DNA of 64,000 nt from an uncultured Planctomycetales bacterium (GTDB lineage: Bacteria; Omnitrophota; Gorgyraeia; Zapsychrales; Fredricksoniimonadaceae): the NCBI GenBank assembly GCA_964572155.1, contig CAZNDZ010000001.1:718290-782289 (forward strand), read 5' to 3'. Below, piece after piece: positions 13,741 through 40,104 of this stretch (the stretch's first letter is position 1; each line of letters begins with the position of its first letter). Both the position numbers and the translations under genes were made by a program. Under the pieces are notes generated by a model. The model saw nothing but the letters and a program-made list of their open reading frames with translations. It did no database searches and was not told the DNA's origin.

Positions 13741-14690
13741 GCAGCGTTTCCGATTTTGGTAATATAGGTGTGCTGATGGGTGGATATTCTTCGGAACGCC
13801 AGATTTCATTAAAGTCAGGTCAAGGGGTTATTGATGCCTTAACACAAGCAGGTTACCCTGTAACACCCATTGACATCGTTGTTTCAGATAAGCATAAGAT
13901 CAAAGAACAGATTGCCGCTGCTCAAATTGACATTGCCTTTATTGCGTTGCATGGGCGTCTAGGGGAAGATGGCGAGATTCAAACCATTTTAGAAGAAATG
14001 GATATTCCCTATACAGGTTCTGGTGTTGATGCCAGTCAAAAAGCGTTTAATAAAACAGTTGCCCAGAAAATTTTTAAATCACATAATTTGCCAGTTCCAG
14101 AACATTTTTGTATCACCGACGGTCAACGTAAAGATTTTAAAGAAGCTTTTGCTGTCTTAAAAAAGTTACCCTTCGTGGTTAAAGCAGCATGTGAGGGATC
14201 AAGCATCGGTATTTTTATGGTGCGTCATCCATCACAATGGGACAGCACCATCAAAGATGCCTTAAATTTCGGACCATACTTGATCATTGAAAAATATATC
14301 AAGGGTCGTGAAATCACGGCGGGTATTTTCGAAAACGAAGCTTTGCCTTTGGTTGAAATACGCACCAAAACAGGCATGTTTGATTTTAATTCGAAATATC
14401 AAAAAGGATTAACGCAATACGATGTGCCAGCTGTTTTAAGTGAGACAGTCGCAACGCGCATTAAGAAGATTGCATTAGCAGCGCATGAAGCCATTGGCTG
14501 TGAAGGTTTTTCACGCGTGGATGTCCGTTTAGATGAAAAAGATAATCCATATATTCTAGAAATCAATACGATCCCAGGGTTTACACCAACGAGCTTGTTT
14601 CCAAAAGCTGCGGCGGTGGCGGGGTATAGTTTCCTTGATGTATGTACAAAATTGCTGACAATAGCCCATGGTAAAAAAGCCAAACATTAA
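13737..14690 (+). CDS. ddl: D-alanine--D-alanine ligase.
   Basis: It shows an ATP-grasp architecture. Supporting stretches are FIALHGRLGEDGEIQ and PYILEINTIPGFT. Confidence 0.88.
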   Translation: MSSVSDFGNIGVLMGGYSSERQISLKSGQGVIDALTQAGYPVTPIDIVVSDKHKIKEQIAAAQIDIAFIALHGRLGEDGEIQTILEEMDIPYTGSGVDASQKAFNKTVAQKIFKSHNLPVPEHFCITDGQRKDFKEAFAVLKKLPFVVKAACEGSSIGIFMVRHPSQWDSTIKDALNFGPYLIIEKYIKGREITAGIFENEALPLVEIRTKTGMFDFNSKYQKGLTQYDVPAVLSETVATRIKKIALAAHEAIGCEGFSRVDVRLDEKDNPYILEINTIPGFTPTSLFPKAAAVAGYSFLDVCTKLLTIAHGKKAKH

Positions 14691-15426
14691 TATCCCTGCC
14701 ATTGCAATCATTCGCGTGATTGTATTCTTATTCATCGGTTTAGTTGCTTTTGTCGGCTATACAAAAGCCCAAGACTTAGTGCTACGCAATGATTTATTTG
14801 CCGTACATGATGTCTATGTCGAGCGTTCGATTGAGTTTATCGATAAGAAGCAGTTGATCGATTTAAAGGGTAGAAATATTTTTACCGTTGATCTAGTTAA
14901 GATGCACCGACGTATTAAGAGTCAATACCCTCAGATTTCACAGTTACACATCGTTAAAGAATTACCCGACCACATCAAAATACTTGCCAAGAAACGCGAT
15001 CCCGCTTTTGCCTATGTTTTAAAGGGAAAATATCTCTTGGTTGATCGTGAAGGTGTGGCGATGTATTATGTAGATAAACAAGGTGATTTGCCAAGCGTCT
15101 TTGGTCCAGTAGGATCAAGTATGAAAGTTGTGTTGGGTACAACGATTGCCAATGATGCCATCAACGATGCCTTAAAAATCATCAATGCGTTTAAGGCTCG
15201 TCAGCAAATTTCTCGTTTGAAGATCGTTAGCCTTGATTTAAGCAATGTGTCACGCTATACAATTGTCTGTGTGGGTGGTTTTAAGGTGCTCTTAGATAAA
15301 GAAAAGTATTCTGAAAAATTAAACATGTTAGAAATGATGTTGGCACAACGCAAAATTGATTTTAATACCGCGAAGTATGTTGATTTAAGATTTAATGAAC
15401 CTGTTTTAGGGGAGAATGCTCCATGA
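14668..15426 (+). CDS. ftsQ: Cell division protein FtsQ/DivIB-like (POTRA plus beta domain).
   Basis: It is a bitopic protein with one TM helix (IIRVIVFLFIGLVAFVGY). Its size and its position before ftsA fit FtsQ. Confidence 0.65.
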   Translation: MVKKPNINIPAIAIIRVIVFLFIGLVAFVGYTKAQDLVLRNDLFAVHDVYVERSIEFIDKKQLIDLKGRNIFTVDLVKMHRRIKSQYPQISQLHIVKELPDHIKILAKKRDPAFAYVLKGKYLLVDREGVAMYYVDKQGDLPSVFGPVGSSMKVVLGTTIANDAINDALKIINAFKARQQISRLKIVSLDLSNVSRYTIVCVGGFKVLLDKEKYSEKLNMLEMMLAQRKIDFNTAKYVDLRFNEPVLGENAP

Positions 15427-16652
15427 TGTTTAAGAAAGTAACTAAACTCAAATATTTTTGCGGTGTGGATATTGGTGTCTCGTGCGTCAAGGCGGCCTTG
15501 GTTAAGGTGCAAGATGAGAAAAATTTAGATCTATTGGGTGTGGCTGAGATACCATCGTCGGGTTTCAAGGATGCGTCGGTGAGCGACTTAACTGAATTAG
15601 CCGAATGCATCACCCGTGCCGTTAAAACGGTAGCGTCGAAGAATAATGTTAATATTTCAACCATACATTTAGGGATGAGTGCAGAATATTTAACCGTGCG
15701 CCATTCATCCGCAGTTGTGCCCTTGATCGATACAGGCAGTAAGGTCATCAGCCGTGCTGATATTAAGAAAGTGGATAATCAAGCCCGATTACTTGGCACT
15801 GCCTTAGAAGAAGAAATTGTTCACGATTTCCCTCAAAGTTATAAGGTTGATGATGTCAATGTGGCAACCAATCCTTTAGGTCTATATGGCCGCAAGATTG
15901 AATCAAATTTATTATTGCTCCTGGTTAATGCCAATCGTATGCGCAATTTGATCAAAGCCGTGCATCAGGCAGGGTTCGAAGTCAGTGATGTGTCATTAAG
16001 TTCATACGCTGCATCCTTGGTTTCCGTCGAGGAAACATTGCGTAATCAAGGTTGTGTTTTAGTCGACATTGGATCAAATACCACGACGGCCTTATTCTTT
16101 AAAAATGGCATTCTAGGAGATATTCAATCCATCCCTTGGGGCGGGAATTATTTAACCCAAAGCTTAGCGGAACGTTTAGGGTTGGCTGCTGATTTAGCGG
16201 AAGATATCAAAAAGGTTCATGCTGTTGCCTCTGCCAATGCGGCCAAAGAAGAGGGTGAGATTTTGATCAAACGCGAACGTGGCTTCTTACCCATTCGCAA
16301 AGAAAAAGTTTGTGAAGCAGTTAATTGGGAAGTTGAAAATTTGCTAACACATTTGGAAGCCGTGATCAAAGGTTCGCCGCTATTTTATGAAATTAACAGC
16401 GGGGTGGTGATGATCGGTGGCGGTGCTTTAATGCCAGGCTTAATGGAACGTGTTGAAAATAGATTAAAGATGCCTGTGAGTTTGGGGAATACCAAGGGCT
16501 TAAATCATGCCGCACTTTTTGCTGGCGCCATTGGTCTAGCTCAAATGAGTTATTATAAGAATAAGAAGGAAGCGTTGGATTTGCGCATGCCTGTTGATAT
16601 GAAGAATAAAGTCTTCGAGCGTGTTAAAGAATTGTGTCAGGAATATTTTTAA
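15423..16652 (+). CDS. ftsA: Cell division protein FtsA (actin-like ATPase).
   Basis: The N-terminal actin-fold motif CGVDIGVSCVKAALV and a later GGGA motif, MIGGGALMPGL, are present. It is 409 aa. Confidence 0.85.
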   Translation: MMFKKVTKLKYFCGVDIGVSCVKAALVKVQDEKNLDLLGVAEIPSSGFKDASVSDLTELAECITRAVKTVASKNNVNISTIHLGMSAEYLTVRHSSAVVPLIDTGSKVISRADIKKVDNQARLLGTALEEEIVHDFPQSYKVDDVNVATNPLGLYGRKIESNLLLLLVNANRMRNLIKAVHQAGFEVSDVSLSSYAASLVSVEETLRNQGCVLVDIGSNTTTALFFKNGILGDIQSIPWGGNYLTQSLAERLGLAADLAEDIKKVHAVASANAAKEEGEILIKRERGFLPIRKEKVCEAVNWEVENLLTHLEAVIKGSPLFYEINSGVVMIGGGALMPGLMERVENRLKMPVSLGNTKGLNHAALFAGAIGLAQMSYYKNKKEALDLRMPVDMKNKVFERVKELCQEYF

Positions 16653-17020
16653 GAATCGTTGTTCTTGCGGTCGTTGCGTCGTTTGCCTAAATTAAAGTCG
16701 ATGTTTTTAAGCAAAGAACGTAAACGCAGTAAGCTGCTAAAGATATAGAGCATCCAGAAAGAATTAAATAATAGCAGGATAACGATGAGCAGGGTGTTGA
16801 TTGTTTGGGTGAACATGAGGCGTTCGATGATGGTGCCTTCACCACTCATGTGATGCATGTCCGCATTGACGTCAATAATTTTCAAGGTGTTGACGAAAAC
16901 AGCGACGAAGATGCCGACTAAGATGATCTCAAAGAAGAGCATATAGAAATGACGTATGAACCATTGGGAACTGCGATTGTCCCATTGACGTAAGGTATTG
17001 GTAAAGTCATTTAATCCCAT
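16649..17020 (-). CDS. Small integral membrane protein of unknown function, convergent with ftsA.
   Basis: It has three hydrophobic helices. I chose the start at minus-strand ATG 17018-17020, which is preceded by AGGAGA. The longer form to 17176 would overlap the neighbouring lipoprotein gene. Confidence 0.45.
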   Translation of the reverse strand: MGLNDFTNTLRQWDNRSSQWFIRHFYMLFFEIILVGIFVAVFVNTLKIIDVNADMHHMSGEGTIIERLMFTQTINTLLIVILLLFNSFWMLYIFSSLLRLRSLLKNIDFNLGKRRNDRKNNDS

Positions 17021-17072
17021 AGCATCTCCTAATCGTTGATTGTATATTAGCTTAAGAATGGAGATAAGCGAA

Positions 17073-17573
17073 ATGAATATCAAATTTTTTGTTTGTGCAT
17101 GCATGCTAACTGCCTTGACCGCGTGTGCAACACCCATTGCCCAAAAAGGTTCCTTAGGATATTCTGATAAACGCAATATTGTGGTGGTTGGGGAAAATGT
17201 TGAAGAATCAATCGCGGAATATTATCAAAAAAAATATGATGCGCTGGTCTGGTTTACCCCATATCAGGGCAGCGTAGCAAATTTCACAAATAATATCGTA
17301 GAATCAGGCATTGGTCCAAGCAAACCCATGCGATCATTGATTGTTCAGCTAAAGAGCATGAATCAAACCATGGGCCGTTGGCAAGTTTATATCCCAAAGA
17401 TCGCGGAATCATATTTTATCCGCACATTAAAGCATATGGAAAATGGGTCCTTGTCTAAAGCACGCGGATCGGTGATCCTCATTGATTCGAATCATGCCCC
17501 AGAAGTAGAAAAGGAAGTTAATCGTGTCAGCGACGGAAGTTTCTTCGTTGAGTTTGAATCAGGCAAGGAGTAG
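17073..17573 (+). CDS. Lipoprotein of unknown function.
   Basis: The signal MNIKFFVCACMLTALTAC contains a lipobox, L-T-A-C. GGAGA lies 7 nt upstream of the ATG at 17073. Confidence 0.55.
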   Translation: MNIKFFVCACMLTALTACATPIAQKGSLGYSDKRNIVVVGENVEESIAEYYQKKYDALVWFTPYQGSVANFTNNIVESGIGPSKPMRSLIVQLKSMNQTMGRWQVYIPKIAESYFIRTLKHMENGSLSKARGSVILIDSNHAPEVEKEVNRVSDGSFFVEFESGKE

Positions 17574-19712: not shown

Positions 19713-19763
19713 TTCCATAATTTCGTTAGCGCCAAAATACCCTAAATATAAAGAGGTTACGTG

Positions 19764-22700
19764 ATGTTCAAGAAATCCCTTTGTTCTATCATTTCGATTA
19801 TATTTCTCTTCACAACCCTAACCCCAGTCCATAAAGCTCAAGCACAATCCTTACTTGGTCTTCCAGAACCAGGGACAATGGTCAGTTTAAGTGCCGCATA
19901 TCAGCCTGCCATCCTTAAAGGTATAACCGTTCATAAAGACAATCCGTTCATGTTTGATTTCTTAGTTGATGTTGGCCAAGACAATCTCACAGGCGATTCT
20001 TTAAAAAATGAAGGTGACAAGCTTATCAAGTATTTCATGGCAACCTTAGCTGTTCCTGAGAAAGATTTATGGGTTAACTTAAGTCCTTATGAAAAAGATC
20101 GCACCGTCCCTGAAGCCTTAGGTCAGACGGACATGGGCCGTGATCTTTTAGCTCAAGACTATATCTTAAAGCAATTAACCGCGAGTTTGATCTATCCTGA
20201 GAAAGAATTAGGCAAAAAGTTTTGGGACAATGTCTATCAAAAGACACAAGCCAAATACGGCAACGTCAATATTCCTGTAAATACATTCAATAAAGTCTGG
20301 ATCATGGCCGACCGAGCCGAAGTGTTCGAACGCAATCAAACCGCGTTTGTAACAGCGAGCCATTTGAAAGTGCTTTTAGAAACCGATTATTTGGCTTTAC
20401 AAAAGTCTGAGGATTCTAAAAGCATCCTGCGAAGCCCAACGCAAAAGCAATTGGGCGAAGCAGGATCATCACAAAATGAAATAGCAAAAAAAGTCATTCG
20501 TGAAATCATCCTTCCTGAACTTGAGCATGAAATCAACACCGGCAAAAACTTTGCAAATCTCCGTCAGATATTTAACTCCATCATCCTAGCCTCATGGTAC
20601 AAGAATAATTTAAAGCAATCCCTGCTTAACGAAACCTACTCAAATAAGAGCACTGTCAAAGGCATCGACATTGACGATAAAACGATTAAACAGCAAATTT
20701 ACGAACGTTACTTGCAAGCCTATAAGAAGGGCGTCTTTAACTATATTAAAGAAACCCCAGAAGGTGCGCCTAAGAAATATTTTTCGGGTGGGGTGTTGGG
20801 AAGTTTGAAAATTACTAAAGCAAATGAAGCCATGGCGGCGGCTGCATTTAATGAAAATAACAAGCTAGCAAATTTTCATGTAAAATTCGATGCTGCCATG
20901 TTGAATGTAGCAGAAATTAAAGCATTAACAAATGAGCTCCTCAGAGTAACAGTAAACAATAAGAATATAACTCTGTTAAATGGATTCAATTCTTTGGGTG
21001 GGAATGTGATGGTTTCTCCCGACAATGAAGGCGGTTTTTATATCATTTTAAGTGTTGATTGGGAGAAGAATGTTGTCAATCATGACGGCGCTGCAGCAAC
21101 AACGCCAAATCCTGCGTTTCATCCAGTCAACAGAGAAAAAATCGAGGCTGCAATTAATGTGTTCATAAAAAATTTTCTCAAGGATCATCGTGATACATAC
21201 TCTATTGAATCATTACGATTCATAAGTCCAGAGGTAAAACCAGGTCAACTAAGAATGGATATTCATCGCATCCACATCACATCACCTTTTGTGGAACCAT
21301 CGGATGCAGCCATGCAAGCAGATCACATAAAGAATGTTGTTGAGAAGCTTGGGGATCTTGTAGCAGAGCCTGGTGTTAATATTTTTGTGCGTCAAACATC
21401 AGAGGGTATAGAAGTGCATTTTCCAGCAGGTTCATTCGACGCCGCTCAAGTTTCCGAATTACAAGATTTAATAGCTAAAATGCAATCTATAAAGTTTAAG
21501 GTTAGCGAAGAAGGATATCATTTTATCGCGCCCGCCGCAAAATCGTTAGCGTTTATTGCTGTGATTACCGTATTAGTTTATAACATGTATCAGCAAACTA
21601 AAGCAGAAAATAAACGTGCACGTGAAGCATATGCTGCCAAATTAGCGGATCAAAAAAGAATTGCCGCAGAGCGAGAGGCGACTTTAAGAAAATCTGCTCA
21701 TGAGGCATTGATGATGTTAGCTTTGATCATCGAGGGTGCAGATTTTGATCAAGTAATGTTGCATGTTAAAGCGATCGCTAATTCATTTAAATCTAATCCC
21801 TATATTATTGAAGAGTTAGAGCGTCTCGATAAGGAAGTATTCTTAAATGATGGTGCGCATAGAGAGAAATGGAATCTGTTATATCATGCAATGATGGAGA
21901 TAATTTCACCATTGAGTGTAGGCGAAGTGCCATCTGAAGATTTTGTTGGGCTTAGAAATGAAATTGCTGCTTTCTTAAGAACTAGTGGGCACTCCAGTGA
22001 TGTGACAGTACAAAGAGTTCAAAGGCAATATAAGGCGCTCACTTCTTTGATGAAATTTGATGTAGGACCTTTCTGGAATCCTGGAGCGCCGGTGTTTTAT
22101 CGTTATGCTATTTCAATGAGTGAGATGGAGAATAATGGATTGTCTGACAAGAATAAGCCATACTTTTTAGAACTATTCAAAAAATTTGATCTAAAGGTGG
22201 TGACTTTGGGCGGGAAGGAATATTTAGTGCCACAACAATGGTATCGTTCCTTTGGATCTGAAACGCAAAGAATGATTTATTTGGACAAAAAGTTATTATT
22301 AGTTAGATTGTATCTTCGGAAGGTATTTAATAAGTTAAATGATTCTATTGAGAGTGGATCTAACAAAAGAATAAATTTAAAGAATATAGAACTCGACGCA
22401 GCCATGCAAGCATTGGATACCAATGTTTTATCAGGATCATCGGTGTTTAAGCGTTTTGATATCCTTGTTCAAATAAAGACTGCGGTAAACGCGGTGTTAA
22501 AAGGACAAAGGTATTTTTTAGATACGCAATATTCGAAAGATGATGTTGAGCAATTAATCAATGCATATAACGGACAAGCTTTAGATGTGAATAAGGTTGC
22601 GTTGTTATCGGAAGCAAGTGATTCACATAAGACAAATGTGTTGTATTTATCGTCCAGTAATGACGCATTAAGAAAATGGGTTGATCAAGAACTTAAAGAA

Positions 22701-24302
22701 ATCAGGATCAAATACATCGCCAACCGATTGAAGTCAAGAGATTTGCAGAATGTTGAAGATGCGCTGTTTGGTGTTGATGGGGTTGAGCAAGTTACAGAAC
22801 AAGCGGGATCGATTGTCGAAGATGCTAAGGAAAGATTCCTAAATATTGAAACTGGTGAGTTTCTAACAGCAGATCAAGTCTTAACACAATTGAAGAATTA
22901 TCGTTGGTTTGTTGTAGGTCTAGAAGGTGGTGAGATCTTAAATATTGTTGAGCCAAGGTTAGCGGCAATGAAGCCAGGCATTCAATCAATTCAAGATGCG
23001 TTGGGTGTTCAATTAAAAGTGCGCATGGGTGAAGGTTTTGTAAAGCTTACGGATGGATTGAAATCATTGGGAAAGGTTGATGTTATAAGTAAGCCAGAAG
23101 GGGGATTTTTAGTGACAATTGTTATGGATCATCGACCGTATGAAGATCCTTTGAAGTTCTATGCGGAAGCTGTTGCAGCTTTTATTGCACAATTTACATA
23201 TAATTTCAGGCAATATTACACGGCGGAAGTTAAATCATATGAAAGACGGGTATTGGCAAGAGATGGTTCGAAAAGAATGTATCAAATCGTTATCGATCCT
23301 GTAACAAGTAACGCTGATGCGGCGATGAAGAGTGTGATGGTTTCCAAAAGAGATTTTCAATCATTTCATGAATATTTGGACAAACTATTAAAGAAGGAAT
23401 TACAAGTTGAGAGTTATAAAATCGCTGGAGAAACCGTGGTAGTTATTCCTGTTAGTTTTATGCCTGATAATGTTCTTGAATATATGGAAGCTATTGCAGA
23501 TAAATTTAATGTTAGATTGCAGCGGCTTAATAATGCTTCCTATTATTTTGTTCCTAATAGATTGCGATATTTTCTTGGGACAACCAATGGCAATGCAGAA
23601 TACATGGGAAGAAAAATAGCTCCCCTGACAAAATATTTAAACGCATTAAACGCAGAGTTAACTGCAAATATCAACCATAAATTTAACCCTCCAATTGATT
23701 TAAACGGTATACACATTGATGCCGCGATGTCTCATTATGTTGATAGTCGTCAAGAATTATTGTTAAGAGGCGGGATTGCGAAAATTAGTAAAGCAGTTGG
23801 TTATGAAGTGCAGAGTACAACGCTCTCAGATGTAAAAAATGGCTATGTTTTATCAATAGCAACGCCGACCAGAGAAGAAAGCAAGGCGGTGTTAGATAAA
23901 CTTTTGGCTTACGCAACAAATGAAGATGTGAAGAATAATTATGTCATAGAACTTTTAAGAGTGCCTCAAGAGGTGGAGTTCATGGGTTCTAAATATTTTA
24001 ACGTGATGTTTAAGTTAACGTTAAAAACATCAGGCCCTGAGGCTGATAAAGATGACTCCAACGTCATAAGTTTTAATGCTAATAAGACGAAGGCTGACGC
24101 TGCCATGAACGGTGGTATTGATCTTAAGGATGCTGCGGCTAATACGAATGTTCGCAAAGAGGGGCAAGGGGTTGAGTTTGTTGTGGATCAGGCCTTGATT
24201 GAGCGGGTGCGTCGGGAGGGGATTAATAGTTTGACGCCGGTGATCTTGCGCATTGATTCATCCGTCAATATCTGGCCTTTGTTGGGATTGAAAAATCCTT
24301 GA
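19764..24302 (+). CDS. Large secreted protein of unknown family (~1,512 aa) with a recurrent (I/V/F)xDAAM motif.
   Basis: The signal peptide is MFKKSLCSIISIIFLFTTLTPVHKAQA. AAGAGG lies 8 nt upstream. DAAM occurs six times, at about aa 377, 513, 873, 1107, 1235 and 1440. One DAAQ variant occurs at about aa 563. A hydrophobic segment, SLAFIAVITVLVYNMY, sits near aa 595 and is followed by a charged coiled coil. Confidence 0.6.
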   Translation: MFKKSLCSIISIIFLFTTLTPVHKAQAQSLLGLPEPGTMVSLSAAYQPAILKGITVHKDNPFMFDFLVDVGQDNLTGDSLKNEGDKLIKYFMATLAVPEKDLWVNLSPYEKDRTVPEALGQTDMGRDLLAQDYILKQLTASLIYPEKELGKKFWDNVYQKTQAKYGNVNIPVNTFNKVWIMADRAEVFERNQTAFVTASHLKVLLETDYLALQKSEDSKSILRSPTQKQLGEAGSSQNEIAKKVIREIILPELEHEINTGKNFANLRQIFNSIILASWYKNNLKQSLLNETYSNKSTVKGIDIDDKTIKQQIYERYLQAYKKGVFNYIKETPEGAPKKYFSGGVLGSLKITKANEAMAAAAFNENNKLANFHVKFDAAMLNVAEIKALTNELLRVTVNNKNITLLNGFNSLGGNVMVSPDNEGGFYIILSVDWEKNVVNHDGAAATTPNPAFHPVNREKIEAAINVFIKNFLKDHRDTYSIESLRFISPEVKPGQLRMDIHRIHITSPFVEPSDAAMQADHIKNVVEKLGDLVAEPGVNIFVRQTSEGIEVHFPAGSFDAAQVSELQDLIAKMQSIKFKVSEEGYHFIAPAAKSLAFIAVITVLVYNMYQQTKAENKRAREAYAAKLADQKRIAAEREATLRKSAHEALMMLALIIEGADFDQVMLHVKAIANSFKSNPYIIEELERLDKEVFLNDGAHREKWNLLYHAMMEIISPLSVGEVPSEDFVGLRNEIAAFLRTSGHSSDVTVQRVQRQYKALTSLMKFDVGPFWNPGAPVFYRYAISMSEMENNGLSDKNKPYFLELFKKFDLKVVTLGGKEYLVPQQWYRSFGSETQRMIYLDKKLLLVRLYLRKVFNKLNDSIESGSNKRINLKNIELDAAMQALDTNVLSGSSVFKRFDILVQIKTAVNAVLKGQRYFLDTQYSKDDVEQLINAYNGQALDVNKVALLSEASDSHKTNVLYLSSSNDALRKWVDQELKEIRIKYIANRLKSRDLQNVEDALFGVDGVEQVTEQAGSIVEDAKERFLNIETGEFLTADQVLTQLKNYRWFVVGLEGGEILNIVEPRLAAMKPGIQSIQDALGVQLKVRMGEGFVKLTDGLKSLGKVDVISKPEGGFLVTIVMDHRPYEDPLKFYAEAVAAFIAQFTYNFRQYYTAEVKSYERRVLARDGSKRMYQIVIDPVTSNADAAMKSVMVSKRDFQSFHEYLDKLLKKELQVESYKIAGETVVVIPVSFMPDNVLEYMEAIADKFNVRLQRLNNASYYFVPNRLRYFLGTTNGNAEYMGRKIAPLTKYLNALNAELTANINHKFNPPIDLNGIHIDAAMSHYVDSRQELLLRGGIAKISKAVGYEVQSTTLSDVKNGYVLSIATPTREESKAVLDKLLAYATNEDVKNNYVIELLRVPQEVEFMGSKYFNVMFKLTLKTSGPEADKDDSNVISFNANKTKADAAMNGGIDLKDAAANTNVRKEGQGVEFVVDQALIERVRREGINSLTPVILRIDSSVNIWPLLGLKNP

Positions 24303-24335: not shown

Positions 24336-24551
24336 ATGAAATCCAATCTTAAACAACTTCGAATAAAGTCTGTTAATCAGTTGATTAAGCCGTTTCCAGG
24401 TCGTTGGGTTGCCTTATCATTTGACGATACCCATATTGTCAGTGTGCGTAAAAGTTTTGAGGCTGCATTAAATGAAGCGCACCGAAAAGGTGAATCATGC
24501 CCACATATAGTTAAAGTTCCCGATGGCTCATGGTCGGGGATTGTCTTTTGA
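24336..24551 (+). CDS. Small hypothetical protein (71 aa) immediately upstream of, and overlapping, the aspartic protease gene.
   Basis: The ORF has GAAGGTG upstream. No recognisable motif. Confidence 0.4.
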   Translation: MKSNLKQLRIKSVNQLIKPFPGRWVALSFDDTHIVSVRKSFEAALNEAHRKGESCPHIVKVPDGSWSGIVF

Positions 24552-24994
24552 GTAATATTACCATTTCATACCAGAAGATTCAAATTCCTGCCCAAGGCGA
24601 TGTTCCAGCCAAAACGATTTACGCCCCAGTTTTAAAAACTACTTTGTTTTACAAAAATGTTGAGCGATTGTTTTTAATTGATTGTATTGTTGATTCAGGT
24701 GCTGATTTTTGTGTGTTTCCTGCCAAAATGGGAAAAGCAATTGGGTTGGATATTTATGAAGGTGAGAATGTTATTACCAATGGGATTGGTGGTAAAGAAA
24801 TTTTATATTTTCATAAGTTAAAGGTAGAAGTTCTACTCAATGATGAACCTTGGGCTTTTGAGTGCAGAGCAGGGTTTTCTAGTAAATTGAACACTAAAGG
24901 CATTGGCTTCTTAGGTCGAGACGGATTTTTTGATCTTTTTCAAGAGGTTTCATTTAATCAAAAAGCTAAAATGTTCCGTCTTAAAGAATTTTGA
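24530..24994 (+). CDS. Retropepsin-like (clan AA) aspartic peptidase domain protein.
   Basis: The motif IDCIVDSGADFCVFP is the D-S-G-A active-site signature of retroviral-type aspartyl proteases. The protein is 154 aa. Confidence 0.6.
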   Translation: MVGDCLLSNITISYQKIQIPAQGDVPAKTIYAPVLKTTLFYKNVERLFLIDCIVDSGADFCVFPAKMGKAIGLDIYEGENVITNGIGGKEILYFHKLKVEVLLNDEPWAFECRAGFSSKLNTKGIGFLGRDGFFDLFQEVSFNQKAKMFRLKEF

Positions 24995-25053: not shown

Positions 25054-26154
25054 ATGTCCACAGAAATATTGCTGCATAATACACCACTTTTAAATGAACA
25101 TGTTGCTCTTGGGGCCAAGATGGTTGGCTTTGGGGGATGGAATATGCCGCTGCAATATGCGGGGATTATCGCCGAGTGGGATGATAATCGTAAGACCTGT
25201 TCCATCTTTGATTGCTCACACATGGGCGAGTTCTTGATCAAGGGTGATGCGGTCAAATCTGGGCTTAATCGCATTGTCACGCAAGCAATTACGGATATGG
25301 CGATCGGTACGTGCCGTTATGGCACGATGCTAAATAACAATGGCGGCGTCATCGATGATTTGATTGTTTATCGCAAAGCCCCGGAAGAGTGGATGATTGT
25401 TGTTAACGCATCGAACATTGAAAAAGATGCGCGTCATTTCAAAGCTAATCTTACATCTGCGGCACAGTTTACCGACATTTCTTTTCAAACAGCAAAATTA
25501 GATCTACAGGGCCCTCTGTCCCGCGATGTCTTATCTGATTTATTAGGCCAAAAAATTTCTTTAGAATATTATACGTTTGCTGAGTTTAATTTGTTGGGCG
25601 AAAAATGCGTGATTAGCCGCACGGGTTATACCGGCGAGTTGGGGTATGAGATTTATTATCCATGGGGGCAAGCTGTTAAATTGTGGCAAGCTATCCTTAA
25701 AGATAAACGTGTTAAGCCAACGGGCCTCGGCGTACGTGATGTGCTGCGCATCGAAATGTGTTATAGCTTATACGGCCATGAATTGTCGGAAGATATTTCT
25801 GTCCTAGAATGCGGTGTTGAGAAATTTTTAGATTTTAATAAAGATTTTATTGGTAAAGACGCATGTGTGGCATATCAAACGCAAGGCGTCAAACGCACCA
25901 TCGCCTACATTCAAAGTGATTCACGTAAATCTCCTCGGGCTGATCATAAAGTTTATAACAGCAACGGCAAAGCAATTGGCACAGTTGTCAGTGGCACTTA
26001 TTCTGTTGGCGTCGGGGTTGGTATTGGGATTGCATTTATAGAAAAAGATGAAAAAAAAGTTGAAAACAAAATTATTTTTGGCGATGATAGGTCTAGGTCA
26101 GATGGTTTGATCGTCAAACGGCCTTTCTACAAAAAGGGATCTCTCAAAAATTAA
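25054..26154 (+). CDS. gcvT: Glycine cleavage system T protein (aminomethyltransferase).
   Basis: It has GcvT family architecture. A supporting stretch is FDCSHMGEF. It is the first gene of a gcv operon. Confidence 0.88.
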   Translation: MSTEILLHNTPLLNEHVALGAKMVGFGGWNMPLQYAGIIAEWDDNRKTCSIFDCSHMGEFLIKGDAVKSGLNRIVTQAITDMAIGTCRYGTMLNNNGGVIDDLIVYRKAPEEWMIVVNASNIEKDARHFKANLTSAAQFTDISFQTAKLDLQGPLSRDVLSDLLGQKISLEYYTFAEFNLLGEKCVISRTGYTGELGYEIYYPWGQAVKLWQAILKDKRVKPTGLGVRDVLRIEMCYSLYGHELSEDISVLECGVEKFLDFNKDFIGKDACVAYQTQGVKRTIAYIQSDSRKSPRADHKVYNSNGKAIGTVVSGTYSVGVGVGIGIAFIEKDEKKVENKIIFGDDRSRSDGLIVKRPFYKKGSLKN

Positions 26155-26182
26155 CGCATCACTGCAGTGTAAGGAAATCATT

Positions 26183-26581
26183 ATGAGTAGCAATTCTGAG
26201 ATCATCGAACATTTTTGGTACACCAAAGAACATGAATGGATTAATGTCGAGGACAATGTTGGCACCATGGGCATCACCGACCATGCGCAACATGCCTTAG
26301 GCGATGTCACCTACGTCGAGCTTCCTGATGAAGAATCAGAAGTCGATCAATTCGAACAGTTCGTTTCCGTCGAGTCTGTGAAAGCAGCGAGCGATATCTA
26401 CGCGCCGTTAGGTGGCCGTGTGATTGAAATCAACCGTGATTTAGAAGATAACCCAGCATTGATTAATAAAGATTGTTACGGCAAAGGATGGATTGCCAAG
26501 ATAGATATTCGTGATGTGGATGAGACCTCCAATTTGATGTCTGCCGACGAATACCGCAGTTATTTAGAATCTTTAGAGTAA
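26183..26581 (+). CDS. gcvH: Glycine cleavage system H protein (lipoyl carrier).
   Basis: It is 132 aa and has a lipoyl-lysine context, ESVKAASD. Confidence 0.88.
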   Translation: MSSNSEIIEHFWYTKEHEWINVEDNVGTMGITDHAQHALGDVTYVELPDEESEVDQFEQFVSVESVKAASDIYAPLGGRVIEINRDLEDNPALINKDCYGKGWIAKIDIRDVDETSNLMSADEYRSYLESLE

Positions 26582-26584
26582 TAG

Positions 26585-27922
26585 ATGAACCCATATATTA
26601 TCAATACAAAAGACGATGTGGCAGCTATGCTGTCGACGATCGGTGTTAAAAACATCGATGGTTTATTCTTGGACATTAAACCAGAACATCGCCCGAAGTC
26701 ATTTAATCTGCCCGCAGGTTTAAGCGAGTACGAGGTCATGCGTAAAGTCACGGCCATGTCGCTTAAGAACAATGTGGCGTTAGTGCCATTTATCGGCGGT
26801 GGATACTACGATCATTACATCCCAACGGCGGTGTCGTCGATCACGTCTCGAGGAGAATTCTACACCGCCTATACGCCCTATCAGCCCGAATGTGCCCAAG
26901 GAACCTTGCAGGCTTTGTTTGAATATCAAAGTTCCATGTGCGCGTTGACGGGTATGGAAGTATCAAATGCGTCGTTGTACGACGGTGGGACCGCGTTATA
27001 CGAAGCCATGATGATGGCCATTCGCATCACCGGCCGTGAGAAAATTGTCATGGATGGCGGGGTAAGCCCCATTTATCGCAAGATTTTAAAGACCTATACG
27101 CATCATTTGCATTATCAATTCTTGGAAACACCCGTCGTGCATGGCCAAAGTAGCCGTGAAGAAATTTTTAAGCTCTTAGACGATGGTGTTGCTGCGGTGA
27201 TTTTACAAACGCCAAATTTCTTTGGTGCCATTGACGATTTTACCGACATCATTAACAAAGCCCATGAAAAAGGTGCGCTTGCGATCGTGAGTGTTTATCC
27301 CATTTCTTTAGGTTTAGTTAAAACCCCAGGCAGCATGGGTGCGGATATTGTCGTCGGTGAAGGTCAATCCTTAGGGTTGCCACTCAATTTCGGCGGGCCT
27401 TATTTAGGGTTCATGACCGCACGTAAGAAATATGTGCGCAAGATGCCTGGGCGTTTGGTGGGTGAGACGGTTGATAAGCAAGGCCGACGCTGTTTTGTAA
27501 ATACCTTACAAGCCCGCGAACAGCATATCCGTCGAGAAAAAGCCACATCAAATATTTGTACCAATGTTTCCTTATGCGCCCTTCAAGCCGCTGTGTTTAT
27601 GTCCATGATCGGCAAGGGTGGCTTTAAAGAACTTGCGCAATTGAATTTAGATAAGGCTGAATATGCGAAAAGTGTTTTAAGTAAGATCAAAGGGGTTGAA
27701 GTCAAACGCAGCGCCCCAACATTTAATGAATTTACCGTGCTGTTGCCTAAGGATGCGTCGGTGGTTGCCGGTGATATGATTAAAAAAGGTTTTGCCGCAG
27801 GATTTCCATTGGGCCGATATTACCCAGGCATGGAGAAATATTTATTAGTCGCTGTCACCGAGAAACGCACCAAGACTGAGATTGATCAATTTGCCAATGC
27901 ATTAGCTGAGGTATTGAAATAA
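26585..27922 (+). CDS. gcvPA: Glycine dehydrogenase (decarboxylating) subunit 1.
   Basis: It is the N-terminal half of a split P protein, 445 aa. Confidence 0.85.
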   Translation: MNPYIINTKDDVAAMLSTIGVKNIDGLFLDIKPEHRPKSFNLPAGLSEYEVMRKVTAMSLKNNVALVPFIGGGYYDHYIPTAVSSITSRGEFYTAYTPYQPECAQGTLQALFEYQSSMCALTGMEVSNASLYDGGTALYEAMMMAIRITGREKIVMDGGVSPIYRKILKTYTHHLHYQFLETPVVHGQSSREEIFKLLDDGVAAVILQTPNFFGAIDDFTDIINKAHEKGALAIVSVYPISLGLVKTPGSMGADIVVGEGQSLGLPLNFGGPYLGFMTARKKYVRKMPGRLVGETVDKQGRRCFVNTLQAREQHIRREKATSNICTNVSLCALQAAVFMSMIGKGGFKELAQLNLDKAEYAKSVLSKIKGVEVKRSAPTFNEFTVLLPKDASVVAGDMIKKGFAAGFPLGRYYPGMEKYLLVAVTEKRTKTEIDQFANALAEVLK

Positions 27923-29388
27923 TGGAACTTATTTTTGAAAAAAGCATAAAAAATCGCCGGGGTTTTCGTTATCCTGACTCTGACGTTGGGGTCAAGGCAA
28001 GCATTCCTGCCAAATATGCCCGCAGCGAAGATGCGCCCTTAGCTGAAGTTTCTGAACTCGATGCTGTGCGTCACTATACCCATTTGTCACAAAAGAATTT
28101 TTCAATCGATACCCATTTTTATCCCTTGGGTTCTTGCACCATGAAATATAACCCTAAGTTCACCGAGGCTCTGGCGCGGTTGGCTGGGTTTAGTGATTTG
28201 CATCCATTATTACCGCAACTCGCCGGTGGTGAAACGTTAACACAAGGCGCATTAGAAGTTTTATATGAAATTGAACAATGGATGTGTGAGATGACAGGGT
28301 TTTCTAATTTCACATTGCAACCATTGGCTGGCGCGCATGGAGAATTAACCGGTATCATGCTCATGGCCGCATATCATAAAGCCAAAGGTAACACGAACAA
28401 GAAATATGTGATCATCCCTGATTCCGCGCATGGCACCAATCCCGCAAGTGCTGCGATTGCAGGTTATGAAACCATTGCTATCCCGTCGAATAAAGACGGT
28501 GGCATGGACATTGAAGCATTAAAGAAAGCCATCACACCTGATGTTGCGGGTTTGATGATGACGGTGCCTAGCACCTATGGTTTATTTGAATCAAATATCA
28601 CGGAAATTTCTAAGCTCATTCATTCCGTTGATGGCATCATGTATTATGACGGTGCCAATTTAAATGCCGTCTTAGGCAAATGTCGCCCAGGCGACGTAGG
28701 CTTTGATGTCATGCACATCAATACCCATAAAACATTCACAACCCCGCACGGCGGTGGCGGCCCAGGTTCTGGTCCAGTAGGTGTGAATGAAAAATTAGCC
28801 AAATTTTTACCTATCTCACGCGTCATTAAAAGAGCGGATGGAACATTTGCACTAAATTATGATTACCCAGATTCTATCGGCTACATTGCGAGCTTTTATG
28901 GCAACTTTGCCATTTTATTGCGTGCTTATGCCTATATGTTGATGTTGGGCCGTCAAGGTTTGATCGATACAACCGAACATGCAGTTTTAAATGCCAACTA
29001 TATTGCTGCCCGATTAAAGAATACCTACAAATTATGCTTTGATAGCGTGTGCATGCATGAAAGTGTGTTTTCCGCAGCCAATCAAGCCGCACGTGGCGTG
29101 CATGCCATTGATATTGCCAAATTCTTAATTGATCAGCAAATTCATCCACCAACGGTATATTTCCCGATTAGCGTGCCAGAAGCCATCATGATTGAGCCAA
29201 CAGAAACAGAATCCAAGCAAGTCATGGATGATTTCATTGATAAAATGCTCAAAGCCGATGAATTATCCAAAACAAACCCCGAAATCTTCAAAGATTTTCC
29301 AAAAACCATGCCGATCAGCCGTCCTGATGAAACCAAGGCTGCGCGGGATGTTAAAACCAGCTACTTTTTATCCACGGATGCAGCTTAA
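27922..29388 (+). CDS. gcvPB: Glycine dehydrogenase (decarboxylating) subunit 2.
   Basis: It is the PLP-binding half of the P protein. The motif HINTHKTFTTPHGGGGPG is present. Confidence 0.85.
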   Translation: MELIFEKSIKNRRGFRYPDSDVGVKASIPAKYARSEDAPLAEVSELDAVRHYTHLSQKNFSIDTHFYPLGSCTMKYNPKFTEALARLAGFSDLHPLLPQLAGGETLTQGALEVLYEIEQWMCEMTGFSNFTLQPLAGAHGELTGIMLMAAYHKAKGNTNKKYVIIPDSAHGTNPASAAIAGYETIAIPSNKDGGMDIEALKKAITPDVAGLMMTVPSTYGLFESNITEISKLIHSVDGIMYYDGANLNAVLGKCRPGDVGFDVMHINTHKTFTTPHGGGGPGSGPVGVNEKLAKFLPISRVIKRADGTFALNYDYPDSIGYIASFYGNFAILLRAYAYMLMLGRQGLIDTTEHAVLNANYIAARLKNTYKLCFDSVCMHESVFSAANQAARGVHAIDIAKFLIDQQIHPPTVYFPISVPEAIMIEPTETESKQVMDDFIDKMLKADELSKTNPEIFKDFPKTMPISRPDETKAARDVKTSYFLSTDAA

Positions 29389-30073
29389 AATCCATTCGTT
29401 CTCGACTTTAGCGCAAAATGTGCATTTTGATGATGTTTTGTTCCAGTTAGCTGTTAAACATGGTGCTGGAGAATATTTGCGCTTTTGGGAATCGCCAACC
29501 TATGGCGTTGTGCTTGGCCGCATTGGTAAAGTTGAAGATGATGTTGATTTAAGCGCAACCACTAAAGATAGCATTCCTGTTATACACCGCGCCTCAGGCG
29601 GCGGCACCGTCGTGCAAGGCCCAGGGTGTTTGAATTATTGCCTTATCCTTTCTAAACAAAAATACCCTGTTTTAAACGACTTACGTCAATCTTACCAGTG
29701 GATTAGTGAAAAAGTTTTGGGTGCGCTTAAACAACAAGGCATAGAAGCCGTGTTTTGCCCAATTTCTGATCTAGCGCTAGTATCCAATCAAAAGAAGTTT
29801 TCTGGCAATGCCCAACGCCGCACCAAAGATTATGTCTTACACCACGGCACAATTCTGTATCAATTTGATCTTAATATGATTTTTAAATACCTAAAAATGC
29901 CCAAAGATATGCCAGAATATCGTAACGCACGTGATCATAAGGACTTTGTCACCAATATATATATAATTGTACCCGCCTTCCAACAAGCATTAGCTGAAGC
30001 TTTTGGTGCCCCCCAAGTTGCGCAACCACTTACATCGCAAGAGATTTCATCTTTAGAAAAATATAATATTTGA
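29378..30073 (+). CDS. Lipoate-protein ligase / octanoyltransferase-like (BPL/LPL catalytic domain).
   Basis: LplA/LipM-like motifs are present: RASGGGTVVQGPG and KFSGNAQRR. I chose the ATG at 29378, which overlaps the gcvPB stop by 11 nt. The longer in-frame ORF from 29192 lies inside gcvPB. Confidence 0.65.
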   Translation: MQLKIHSFSTLAQNVHFDDVLFQLAVKHGAGEYLRFWESPTYGVVLGRIGKVEDDVDLSATTKDSIPVIHRASGGGTVVQGPGCLNYCLILSKQKYPVLNDLRQSYQWISEKVLGALKQQGIEAVFCPISDLALVSNQKKFSGNAQRRTKDYVLHHGTILYQFDLNMIFKYLKMPKDMPEYRNARDHKDFVTNIYIIVPAFQQALAEAFGAPQVAQPLTSQEISSLEKYNI

Positions 30074-30083
30074 TTTTATTATT

Positions 30084-31328
30084 TTGATTTTTTCTGGTAA
30101 CATGATTTTTATGTTGGTCAGATTAATCTTACTTTTATTGTTTTTTTCTATGACGCCCCAAGTATTTGCAAAAAATACCCCCAAAGATTATCAAGAATAC
30201 GTTAAATATTTCGAAAAAGTCTATCAAATCTTTGAAGATAATTATTATCAGGAACCAAACCCTAAGGCGTATAACGATTTTTTAGAAAAGTTCCGCACCA
30301 AGATATATGCGCAGCTCAAAGGGGAAGGTAAGAGCAATGATTATGTCAAATGGCGTTCTGCGTGGTTCTTAGTTGAAGATTTAAAAACCAATGAAGATCG
30401 TTTTTCCCAATTTTATCCTCCAAAGCCCGCAGAAAAGTTTCAGAAAGAGGCCTTGGGCCAGCGTGTGGACTTAGGGATTGAAGGTAAGAAGGTGGATGCA
30501 GGTTTCTTGGTGACCCAAATAGAACCACGGTCTGATGCATATGAAAAGGGTATGCGTGAAGATGATATTTTAGTTCAATTAGACCAAAAGAATTTAAAAG
30601 ATTTGCCTCAAGAAGAAATAGAAAAAGAATTATCTCCTTTGATCAATTCCAAAGTTAAGATTACGTATTTAACTGCAGCAGATAAACAAGCCAAGGACAT
30701 AGAGGTTGTTAGCAAAGAATATTTTAAACAAACTATTTTTCTAAGACCCGTTGAAGTACCAGGTGTTTTTTGTTTAGAAATTCCTAAATTCAATCGTACG
30801 TCTGGTGAAGATTTATATCGCTTCTTAAAACTCATTTCACAATATCAACCACGGGGTTTAGTGATAGATCTACGAGGTAATCCTGGAGGGCCACCATTAG
30901 CTGCGCGTGAAATGGCAGGGTTCTTCTTAAAAGGTGGCGAAGAATTTACACATTTTCAAAAACGTGGCATTCCGCCGGATGCGTTAGATGTTCCCGTTTA
31001 TGATGATGCGGTTAAATTTAATGCACCCATTGCTATTTTAGTCAATAAGGATAGTGGCAGTGCATCAGAATTATTTTCAGGTGTGATGCAATTTCGCAAA
31101 CGTGCGATTGTGATCGGAGAAAATACTGCCGGTCAAATGTTATTAAAGAGCATGTTCCCTATGGATGATGGTTCGATGATTGGTCTTGTCACGGCACCAG
31201 GGTATTTACCCGACGGAACACGCTTTAGTTTTAACGGTGTCACCCCAGATCAAGTGATCACAGATGCACCCAAAGAAGGTTTGATCAATTTAGCGGCAAC
31301 CATTTTAGTATTAAAAGGGAATAAGTAA
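30084..31328 (+). CDS. S41-family C-terminal processing peptidase (Ctp-like) with a signal peptide.
   Basis: The S41 motif VIDLRGNPGGP is present, with a PDZ-like region upstream. It has an N-terminal hydrophobic signal. Confidence 0.7.
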   Translation: MIFSGNMIFMLVRLILLLLFFSMTPQVFAKNTPKDYQEYVKYFEKVYQIFEDNYYQEPNPKAYNDFLEKFRTKIYAQLKGEGKSNDYVKWRSAWFLVEDLKTNEDRFSQFYPPKPAEKFQKEALGQRVDLGIEGKKVDAGFLVTQIEPRSDAYEKGMREDDILVQLDQKNLKDLPQEEIEKELSPLINSKVKITYLTAADKQAKDIEVVSKEYFKQTIFLRPVEVPGVFCLEIPKFNRTSGEDLYRFLKLISQYQPRGLVIDLRGNPGGPPLAAREMAGFFLKGGEEFTHFQKRGIPPDALDVPVYDDAVKFNAPIAILVNKDSGSASELFSGVMQFRKRAIVIGENTAGQMLLKSMFPMDDGSMIGLVTAPGYLPDGTRFSFNGVTPDQVITDAPKEGLINLAATILVLKGNK

Positions 31329-40050: not shown

Positions 40051-40104
40051 TTTTATAAAAATTGAGATTTTGATTTCGTGATCGAACAGAATAAAAAAGG
40101 GTTA

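Follow-up and report, generated by a model that had tools for sequence, protein, structure and literature searches.

The tetrapeptide DAAM, which recurs in a large predicted secreted protein of an uncultured bacterium, is, by sequence comparison, the commonest form of an inter-module junction motif, D-x-A-M, in a family of putatively exported mosaic proteins, and not the signature of a repeated domain. The gene is at positions 19764-24302 of a 64,000-nucleotide stretch of contig CAZNDZ010000001.1 (positions 718,290 to 782,289; here called the window), which is deposited as an uncultured Planctomycetales bacterium and assigned to the Omnitrophota by GTDB. We refer to the family as the bookend family. 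As judged by alignment, its members combine a predicted Sec-type signal, a conserved N-terminal domain (N-domain), variable central cargo, and a conserved C-terminal domain (C-domain), and the family is very large, uncharacterized, and associated with the Omnitrophota. In searches of the literature we came across neither the motif nor the family, and we believe that a family with its own junction motif is undescribed and new in kind; the functions that we suggest for it below are drawn by analogy.

The D-x-A-M motif in the window protein and its family

The DAAM sites in the window protein are far more frequent than expected by chance. An earlier reading of the window from its letters and open reading frames (ORFs) alone (the original prediction) had described a protein of 1,513 amino acids (aa) with six DAAM motifs and one DAAQ variant, and had taken the motif to be functional. 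The ORF is real: it starts at an ATG at 19764, with an in-frame GTG at 19761, it is the sole long ORF there, and the same protein was found identical (P0001) on NCBI and Logan contigs. The length of 1,513 counts the stop codon and the product has 1,512 aa. The six DAAM sites and the DAAQ site were all present (Table 1), and there is also a DAAA variant at aa 1456. Exact DAAM was observed six times compared to 0.014 times expected from composition. None of 20,000 shuffles reached six, the maximum being two. The motif is non-random, and it looks functional, as the original prediction supposed. All other tetrapeptides in the protein occur at most twice. Among window ORFs of more than 150 codons, DAAM was confined to this one, and it was absent from the giant ORF (at least 7,970 aa) of the same window.

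The window protein is related to other family members only at its two ends. A homology search with the window protein matched more than 4,060 proteins, and alignment to the homologs was confined to two regions, aa 1 to approximately 345-375 (55-71% identity) and the final ~65 aa (35-65% identity); the middles were unrelated. For detailed analysis we used 119 listed homologs and the window protein (120 members). Proteins of the family have ~900 to 2,400 aa. The N-domain is ~345-375 aa long and has about 80 invariant residues, with conserved blocks that include WVNLSPYE, NTFNKVWI, and KYFSGG. The leader peptide is conserved in the family and ends in AxA, with Ala27 (the –1 position) at least 90% conserved. 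The N-terminus of the window protein, MFKKSLCSIISIIFLFTTLTPVHKAQA followed by QS, resembles a Sec signal peptide in its sequence pattern, and the description of the protein as secreted held up in that it looks exported.

The C-domain is found once per protein and only at the end. Its consensus is GGIDLNTxxGMxWKVxKDGxGVEMxxDPAMIERIRREGIxSLSPVIxRITPVxSIWPLxGL. Using a hidden Markov model (HMM), we found a single, always C-terminal copy in 119 of the 120 members and no internal copy in any of them. About 20% of members (23 of 116) run 8-12 residues past the C-domain and end in ...(E)RLAGV, LAAV, or LAKV. The window protein is without this tail and ends in ...LLGLKNP.

Family members are numerous and often adjacent to one another. 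The original prediction had proposed a search of related genomes for homologs and their gene neighborhoods; scanning a single genome for each GTDB species gave at least 588 family loci, and the neighbors were not conserved. The titles of the 80 kept loci name Omnitrophota, Omnitrophica, or 'Ca. Aceula' in 57 cases and 'uncultured Planctomycetales' in 23 (labels as given). There were several family loci per metagenome-assembled genome, and 109 family ORFs in 81 loci, indicating that adjacent paralogs are common. We rejected a viral origin, as a relative was found on only 3 of 2.9 million viral contigs.

No curated family matched these proteins. Searches of Pfam, NCBIfam, PHROGs, and PADLOC with the whole window protein and with each of its segments gave nothing usable, and the C-terminal 68 aa had no match in Pfam or NCBIfam even at E≤10. 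The original prediction, which recognized no family, was right about curated families and missed the very large uncharacterized one that explains the context of the motif.

The N-domain has a predicted fold for which we recognized no solved relative. An AlphaFold2 model (predicted local distance difference test score [pLDDT] of 73, predicted TM-score of 0.66) contains two beta-hairpins and about seven long helices. A Foldseek search with this model gave nothing significant: the best hit in the PDB had an E value of 0.12 (TM-score <0.2) and the best hit in BFVD had an E value of 0.037 (TM-score of 0.12). The alpha-pore-forming toxins NheA, SmhA, and colicin Ia were among the candidates (E values of 0.2-1.8, TM-score <0.2) and we do not regard them as evidence of relatedness. 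Sequence-profile matches to the PDB were coiled-coil noise only, from poorly aligned columns of the middle, and were likewise set aside. Because confidence in the model is moderate, we do not claim a new fold. The C-domain is predicted, at low to modest confidence in a model of the homolog P0104, to be beta-beta-alpha.

The cargo between the two conserved ends is highly diverse. The middles of the 120 members fell into 81 similarity clusters, 65 of which were singletons. Domains seen in the cargo include adenylate kinase, PGK, enolase, malate synthase with isocitrate lyase, PPDK/PEP synthase, GDH, hexokinase, transaldolase, aminotransferase, ACP, receiver, XRE HTH, and the C-terminal domain of the RNA polymerase alpha subunit. 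Signature motifs are retained in the adenylate kinase of P0009 and the PGK of P0034, and cytoplasm-type enzyme cargo is apparently intact in many members. The middle of the window protein (aa 376-1444) found only itself, both when 5.8 billion clusters were searched by word index and when 1.84 billion representatives were searched exhaustively with phmmer, and none of its segments had a Pfam match at E<0.01. This cargo consists of about seven orphan modules, one of which contains a hydrophobic helix.

The motif is strongly enriched in the middles of family members. Its general form is [S/P/T/A]-[D/N]-x-A-M-[T/A]-[A/S/T/V], of which DAAM is the commonest version. A, P, R, S, E, Q, and K are favored at position x, and G, V, and I are avoided. 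Positions beyond the motif are not conserved across the family. In an unbiased k-mer scan of 116 middles, DAAM ranked first (126-fold enriched and present in 83), with DAAMT and NPAMT enriched 634-fold and 603-fold, respectively. Thr was 4.8-fold enriched at the position after Met (+1), followed by A, S, T, or V at +2. DAAM was the third commonest tetrapeptide overall in the homologs, even though it is outside the conserved domains. Compared to neighboring genes in the same loci, DAAM was 12-fold and NAAM 39-fold more frequent, and the few background matches in those genes were mostly in fragments of family genes.

The motif is located at the joints between domains. Of the members, 81% have a site in the 80 aa that follow KYFSGG (the end of the N-domain), and 55% have one in the 30 aa preceding GGIDL. 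Sites number four per member on average and are a median of 158 aa apart. In 14 homologs with Pfam matches, none of 63 motif sites was within a Pfam envelope (P = 5.7e-7 under uniform placement). Instead, sites bracketed the domains: a receiver (390-508) was between sites at 378 and 511, an ACP (685-748) between sites at 674 and 755, and a transaldolase (758-1162) between sites at 732 and 1171. Several domains had a motif within 3-9 residues on one or both sides. In P0034, N-G-A-M is three residues before MRLNDL, the PGK-type start, and in P0025, D-D-A-M directly precedes the start of enolase. In a full-length AlphaFold model of P0104 (mean pLDDT of 59), both DAAM sites were in coil with pLDDT<50 between folded blocks; this view of the structural context comes from one low-confidence homolog model.

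The motif itself appears to be under selection. Within orthogroups, it was kept at equivalent joints while the linkers changed in sequence and length, which argues for selection on the motif. It was also sometimes gained or lost, which is how short linear motifs usually evolve. Synonymous codons varied among the six DAAM sites of the window protein and across 177 sites in the family, with free third positions, indicating that selection acts on the peptide.

The segments that begin with DAAM do not resemble one another. The original prediction had explained the irregular spacing of the motif by repeated, divergent domains that share a functional site. We compared these segments in the window protein pairwise and found that 14 of 15 pairs were at noise level. 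One pair, 376-513 versus 1066-1184, was marginally similar (z of 5.5). BLAST found no internal repeats in the window protein. The irregular spacing fits a string of separate modules rather than a series of diverged repeats, and the motif marks the joints between modules and not a site within them.

Possible functions of the junction motif

We think, with a probability of roughly 40%, that the junction motifs are putative recognition sites for an endoprotease and that the mosaic is a bacterial polyprotein. The precursor would be cut after export at exposed linkers, probably at or adjoining the invariant Ala-Met. Cutting would part the cargo modules, each with a near-native N-terminus, from one another and from the N- and C-domains, and the latter two might then serve in export, targeting, or anchoring. 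The candidate protease could act in trans or could be the N-domain itself. We favor cleavage because the motif is found in exposed linkers, at domain-size spacing, and at both bookend domains, and because three fixed positions surround a free one and sites are just upstream of native enzyme N-termini. The cleavage sites of the viral 3C and NS3 proteases and of the cysteine protease domain (CPD) of MARTX toxins are also short sites with fixed positions, and D-x-A-M resembles them in this respect. We rejected signal peptidase I as a reader of the motif because cleavage after the invariant Ala would put D or N at –3, in conflict with the –3/–1 rule for that enzyme. In a report on giant proteins of the Omnitrophota, cleavage into several products was proposed, with the cleavage points unknown (West-Roberts et al., bioRxiv 10.1101/2023.11.21.568195).

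Several findings weigh against cleavage. No protease was tied to the family by gene neighborhood, as the best real neighbor family occurred in 5 of 81 loci, and the retropepsin-like gene beside the window copy had a sub-threshold match and was absent from the other loci. A site before the C-domain is missing in 45% of members, ~7% of members have no site at all, and several enzyme domains are more than 150 aa from the nearest one. Some sites occur in tandem, 7-20 aa apart, for which avidity or binding is no worse an explanation than cleavage. A helix N-cap or a helical docking element would account for the preferences at position x and for the D, N, or S that opens the motif, and D-P-A-M also begins a predicted helix inside the C-domain. 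Finally, if the hydrophobic helix in the window protein is a true transmembrane segment, then DAAM sites would be on both sides of the membrane, which is awkward for a protease in a single compartment.

A more far-reaching version of the polyprotein idea seems to us rather unlikely in its entirety. It holds that the family is a delivery system in which joints would be cut to free dozens of cargo modules outside the cytoplasm, perhaps on the surface of prey or host cells or inside them, with the N- and C-domains providing targeting and the cargo including glycolytic and central-metabolism enzymes and lineage-specific orphan domains.

It is possible, if doubtful, that the motif is bound rather than cut. 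D-x-A-M would then be a short helical motif in flexible linkers that docks to a partner, which might be the N-domain of the family, another conserved Omnitrophota protein, a periplasmic chaperone, or a component of a secretion system. With about four motifs and one receptor domain per protein, docking could lead to self-association and the formation of a mesh or scaffold, as in cohesin-dockerin systems or networks of multivalent short linear motifs. The P0104 model, in which a helical turn of three residues is predicted on A-A-M within low-confidence coil, is consistent with docking, as are the helix-like residue preferences at x, the tandem and closely spaced sites, and a motif number that varies, with gain and loss between orthologs that is typical of short linear motifs. 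The highly conserved N-domain is present in every member and is a possible receptor, and the failure to find a protease associated with the family also favors docking over cleavage. However, docking does not require strict placement at native domain N-termini and at both bookends, and three fixed residues over four positions, including the invariant Met, would be a small footprint for specific helical docking.

We consider it unlikely that the motif is purely structural, with no trans-acting reader. D/N-x-A-M would in that case be a helix N-cap or 'stopper' that insulates modules from one another during folding or export, and it would have spread with the linkers as modules were shuffled between paralogs. 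Helices prefer D, N, or S at the N-cap followed by Pro or Ala, which matches the first two positions of the motif, and a D-P-A-M does begin the predicted helix of the C-domain. Recombination would have had opportunity, given paralogs that are numerous and often adjacent. This explanation leaves unexplained the near-invariant Ala and Met and the 126- to 600-fold enrichment of exact words across unrelated modules. In addition, the flanks of the motif are not conserved, indicating that the linkers are not mere copies of one another, and the motif survives both divergence and length changes of the linkers.

A modification site seems very unlikely to us. The motif could be a sequon, for example for O-glycosylation of the Thr or Ser after Met by a GT-C/PMT-like transferase such as the product of the upstream gene, and would be likened to the general O-glycosylation sequons in linkers of exported bacterial proteins. 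The weak PMT_2 (GT-C) match of the upstream gene, the residue preferences at +1 and +2 described above, and the location of the sites in exposed linkers of a predicted Sec-exported protein are all in line with this. However, the residues after the six DAAM sites of the window protein are L, Q, Q, K, S, and N, with no Thr among them; Thr follows DAAM at 42 of 172 sites in the family (about a quarter); and the GT-C-like gene is not a conserved neighbor and its Pfam match is below threshold.

The proposal that the DAAM segments are divergent copies of one domain, with the motif as its shared functional site, now appears highly improbable. The marginal similarity of segments 376-513 and 1066-1184 and the arrangement in the window protein, with beta-like residues before each motif and helix-like residues after it, would be expected from it. 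The noise-level similarity of the other segment pairs, the absence of internal repeats, and flanks with no conserved domain signal would not, and in homologs the motif is found on either side of unrelated Pfam folds (ACP, receiver, transaldolase, PGK, enolase) but never within them.

Least probable of all is that the Met is an internal start for nested, non-exported products or a start-codon scar of once-separate genes: the invariant Met, the N-terminus-like T, A, and S after it, and the placement just upstream of native enzyme starts are as expected, but a Shine-Dalgarno-like sequence precedes only 10% of motif ATGs, compared with 20% for the remaining internal ATGs and 33% for the starts of ORFs, the PGK of P0034 has its own initiator-like Met three residues after the motif Met, the motif also precedes the C-domain, which is never found without the N-domain in our sample, and a scar would not keep D and A at the peptide level with free third positions.

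Comparison with known systems and biological meaning

The logic of the bookend family resembles that of MARTX toxins, polymorphic toxins, type IX secretion system (T9SS) cargo, and processed polyproteins, and none of the features by which we could test membership in these groups was found. In MARTX toxins (of Vibrio and other bacteria), swappable, unrelated modules lie between conserved N- and C-terminal regions, and the precursor is cut between modules. MARTX toxins are substrates of type I secretion systems and have no Sec signal, and they are cut after Leu by their own CPD, which is activated by inositol phosphate. In contrast, the bookend family has a predicted Sec signal, D-x-A-M, and cargo of housekeeping-type enzymes rather than toxins, and the window protein had no Pfam or NCBIfam match to RTX/MARTX repeats or the cysteine protease domain.

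Polymorphic toxins and two-partner secretion (TPS) proteins are similar to the bookend family in that they form large paralogous families with a constant N-terminal domain, variable downstream cargo, and multiple, often adjacent copies. They differ in that the C-terminus of the bookend family is conserved and its cargo is central and multi-modular. Searches of Pfam and NCBIfam and of the neighbors in 81 loci found no TPS, RHS, LXG, PT-TG, or immunity-gene signatures and no transporter or immunity gene conserved beside the family, and the helix-rich model of the N-domain, with its two hairpins, is not a beta-helix.

T9SS cargo proteins of the Bacteroidota have a Sec signal, which is predicted here too, and, like the bookend proteins, arbitrary passengers and a small C-terminal domain (~70-100 aa in the T9SS) found once at the extreme C-terminus. 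Here the C-domain is predicted to be beta-beta-alpha and not an Ig-like sandwich, a conserved N-domain and junction motifs are present in addition, and the proteins come from another phylum. The C-terminal 68 aa of the window protein had no match to Por_Secre_tail or T9SS C-terminal domain profiles. A sorting signal of the sortase, exosortase, or rhombosortase type (a motif, a C-terminal transmembrane segment, and a basic tail) is absent from the window protein, whose C-terminus (...NIWPLLGLKNP) has neither a hydrophobic helix nor a basic tail.

Processed polyproteins, such as the Porphyromonas gingipains RgpA and Kgp and the substrates of picornavirus 3C, have several short, partly degenerate sites at domain boundaries with domain-size spacing, as seen here, and a retropepsin-like gene adjoins the window copy. 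Gingipain sites are at Arg or Lys and picornavirus 3C sites are at Q|G. D-x-A-M is unlike either, and cleavage of the bookend proteins is putative. We found no cognate retropepsin-like protease conserved beside or inside the precursor gene, either at the P0003 locus or among neighbor clusters over 81 loci.

The giant 'Archaeovorins' of the Omnitrophota, as described in two preprints, are from the same phylum and are likewise mosaics with cytoplasm-type domains (PPDK_N, receiver), exported or membrane-associated (bioRxiv 10.1101/2023.11.21.568195; bioRxiv 10.64898/2026.06.07.730766). Neither the bookend family nor its motif is described in the passages of the two papers that we searched. The Archaeovorins differ in having 10,000 to more than 100,000 aa, many transmembrane helices, and C39 or S8 peptidase domains. 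The window protein has 1,512 aa, one hydrophobic helix, and no peptidase domain, and most members of the bookend family have no transmembrane helix.

The family is likely to be central to the envelope or host-interaction biology of the Omnitrophota, given its thousands of members and multiple copies per genome. These bacteria are widespread, uncultivated, and mostly ultra-small, with a host-dependent or predatory lifestyle inferred from genomes alone. It is unusual for a predicted signal peptide to be followed by PGK, adenylate kinase, enolase, glyoxylate-shunt enzymes, and PPDK that are apparently intact, and the 1,069-aa orphan middle of the window protein illustrates that cargo is acquired either rapidly or from a largely unsampled source. 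The junction motif is a testable handle that predicts where the mosaics would be cut or bound and that allows them to be split into modules for structure prediction. Such positions are the kind of information that, in work on giant Omnitrophota proteins, is said to be missing (10.1101/2023.11.21.568195).

Other features of the window protein and neighboring genes

The coordinates of the bookend gene, its segments and motif sites, and the adjacent genes are given in Table 1.

Table 1. Features of the bookend gene and adjacent genes, in window positions.
Feature	Position	Strand	Basis or remark
Upstream 'GT-C' gene, 667 aa	17673-19676	+	PMT_2 sub-threshold: E 0.002, 18.6 bits vs cut-off 26.1; no NCBIfam match
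Complete coding sequence, member of the Omnitrophota 'bookend' mosaic family	19764..24302	+	1,512 aa + stop codon
Predicted Sec signal peptide, aa 1-27 (MFKK..., hydrophobic core, AQA before QS)	19764..19844	+	sequence and family consensus
Conserved N-domain, aa 28-375	19845..20888	+	homology, predicted fold
NEAM, aa 354	20823..20834	+	weak [DN]xAM-type variant within the N-domain tail
Variable middle, aa 376-1444, 1,069 aa, orphan	20889..24095	+	homology searches
Orphan module A, aa 376-513	20889..21302	+	weakly similar to module E (z 5.5)
DAAM site 1, aa 376	20889..20900	+	directly after the last predicted N-domain element; family-typical first junction
DAAM site 2, aa 514	21303..21314	+	
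DAAQ variant, aa 559	21438..21449	+	
Internal hydrophobic helix, ~aa 587-607, candidate stop-transfer transmembrane segment	21522..21584	+	Kyte-Doolittle, charge
K/R/E-rich segment after the hydrophobic helix, ~aa 608-650	21585..21713	+	charged-residue count
DAAM site 3, aa 878	22395..22406	+	
LAAM variant, aa 1066	22959..22970	+	start of module E
DAAM site 4, aa 1185	23316..23327	+	
DAAM site 5, aa 1319	23718..23729	+	
DAAM site 6, aa 1445	24096..24107	+	one residue before GGIDL; family-typical last junction
Conserved C-domain, aa 1450-1512, GGIDLK DAAA...VDQALIERVRREGINSLTPVILRI...IWPLLGLKNP	24111..24299	+	alignment, HMM
DUF5678 protein, 71 aa (first of the 'protease pair')	24336-24551	+	E 1.3e-5
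Retropepsin-like protein, 154 aa (second of the 'protease pair')	24530-24994	+	Asp_protease_2 sub-threshold, E 6e-4

The hydrophobic helix and the charged segment after it are peculiar to the cargo of the window protein. A helix near aa 595 followed by a highly charged stretch, taken for a coiled coil, had been noticed earlier, and we found the helix and the charged stretch, the latter a candidate coiled coil: the mean Kyte-Doolittle value over 19 residues was 2.17 at aa 587-605, the net charge was +1 in the 15 residues before the helix and +3 in the 15 after, and charged residues made up 36% of aa 611-660. As a general feature of such proteins the combination did not stand, since only ~10-15% of family members carry a segment of transmembrane grade.

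Two other short elements recur in the window protein. I-[DN]-L tripeptides occur three times (aa 870, 1311, and 1452; nucleotides 22371, 23694, and 24117), each 1-5 residues upstream of DAA[MA], in the contexts INLKNIELDAAM, IDLNGIHIDAAM, and GGIDLKDAAA. These pairs may be partial duplications of the C-domain junction within the gene. We dropped 'IDL(N/K)' before DAAM as a family feature because it was found at only 2 of 172 family sites, both in the window protein. The mature N-terminus (LLGLPEPG) and the C-terminus (PLLGLKNP) have the element LLGL-x(0-2)-P in common.

The genes next to the bookend gene are not conserved beside other family members. The original prediction had placed the gene between a GT-C gene and a pair of protease genes. 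We found no conserved neighbor or operon partner across 81 loci, indicating that the position of the gene carries no information, and the commonest 'neighbor' cluster was the antisense shadow of the N-domain. As for the labels themselves, both the PMT_2 match behind the GT-C assignment, which is tentative, and the Asp_protease_2 match are below threshold, and the 71-aa gene of the 'protease pair' encodes a DUF5678 protein. The two genes of this pair overlap and look like a small, independent two-gene module that is not kept beside other family members. There is no second copy of the family within the window.

Further downstream, 25054-31328 (+) contains a complete glycine-cleavage set (gcvT, gcvH, gcvP1, and gcvP2) followed by genes for a lipoate-protein ligase and an S41 protease. 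The latter, a C-terminal processing protease with a PDZ domain (30084-31328, +), could conceivably read an Ala-rich site, but its gene is a common housekeeping one and was not linked to the family. Upstream, at 13737-17573, ddl, ftsQ, and ftsA are in a row without ftsZ after them. In the place of ftsZ there are two small overlapping ORFs with no Pfam match, 16649-17176 (–) and 17040-17573 (+), and the tubulin/FtsZ signature GGGTG[ST]G was found nowhere in the window in any frame.

The giant ORF starts at a GTG at 40078 (+) with a signal-peptide-like sequence and is still open at the end of the window (64000). It contains an array of ~20 kb of 39-bp repeats that encode a 13-aa unit, G-[VI]-N-W-N-D-x-[NG]-V-L-S-K-x, with 367 matches to NW[NQKYHT]D. 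On the opposite strand (41184-63530, –), about ten ORFs of up to 1,276 aa with no Pfam match read as periodic TPKSFQLTPxLLK, and these appear to be antisense shadows of the 39-bp array and not genes.

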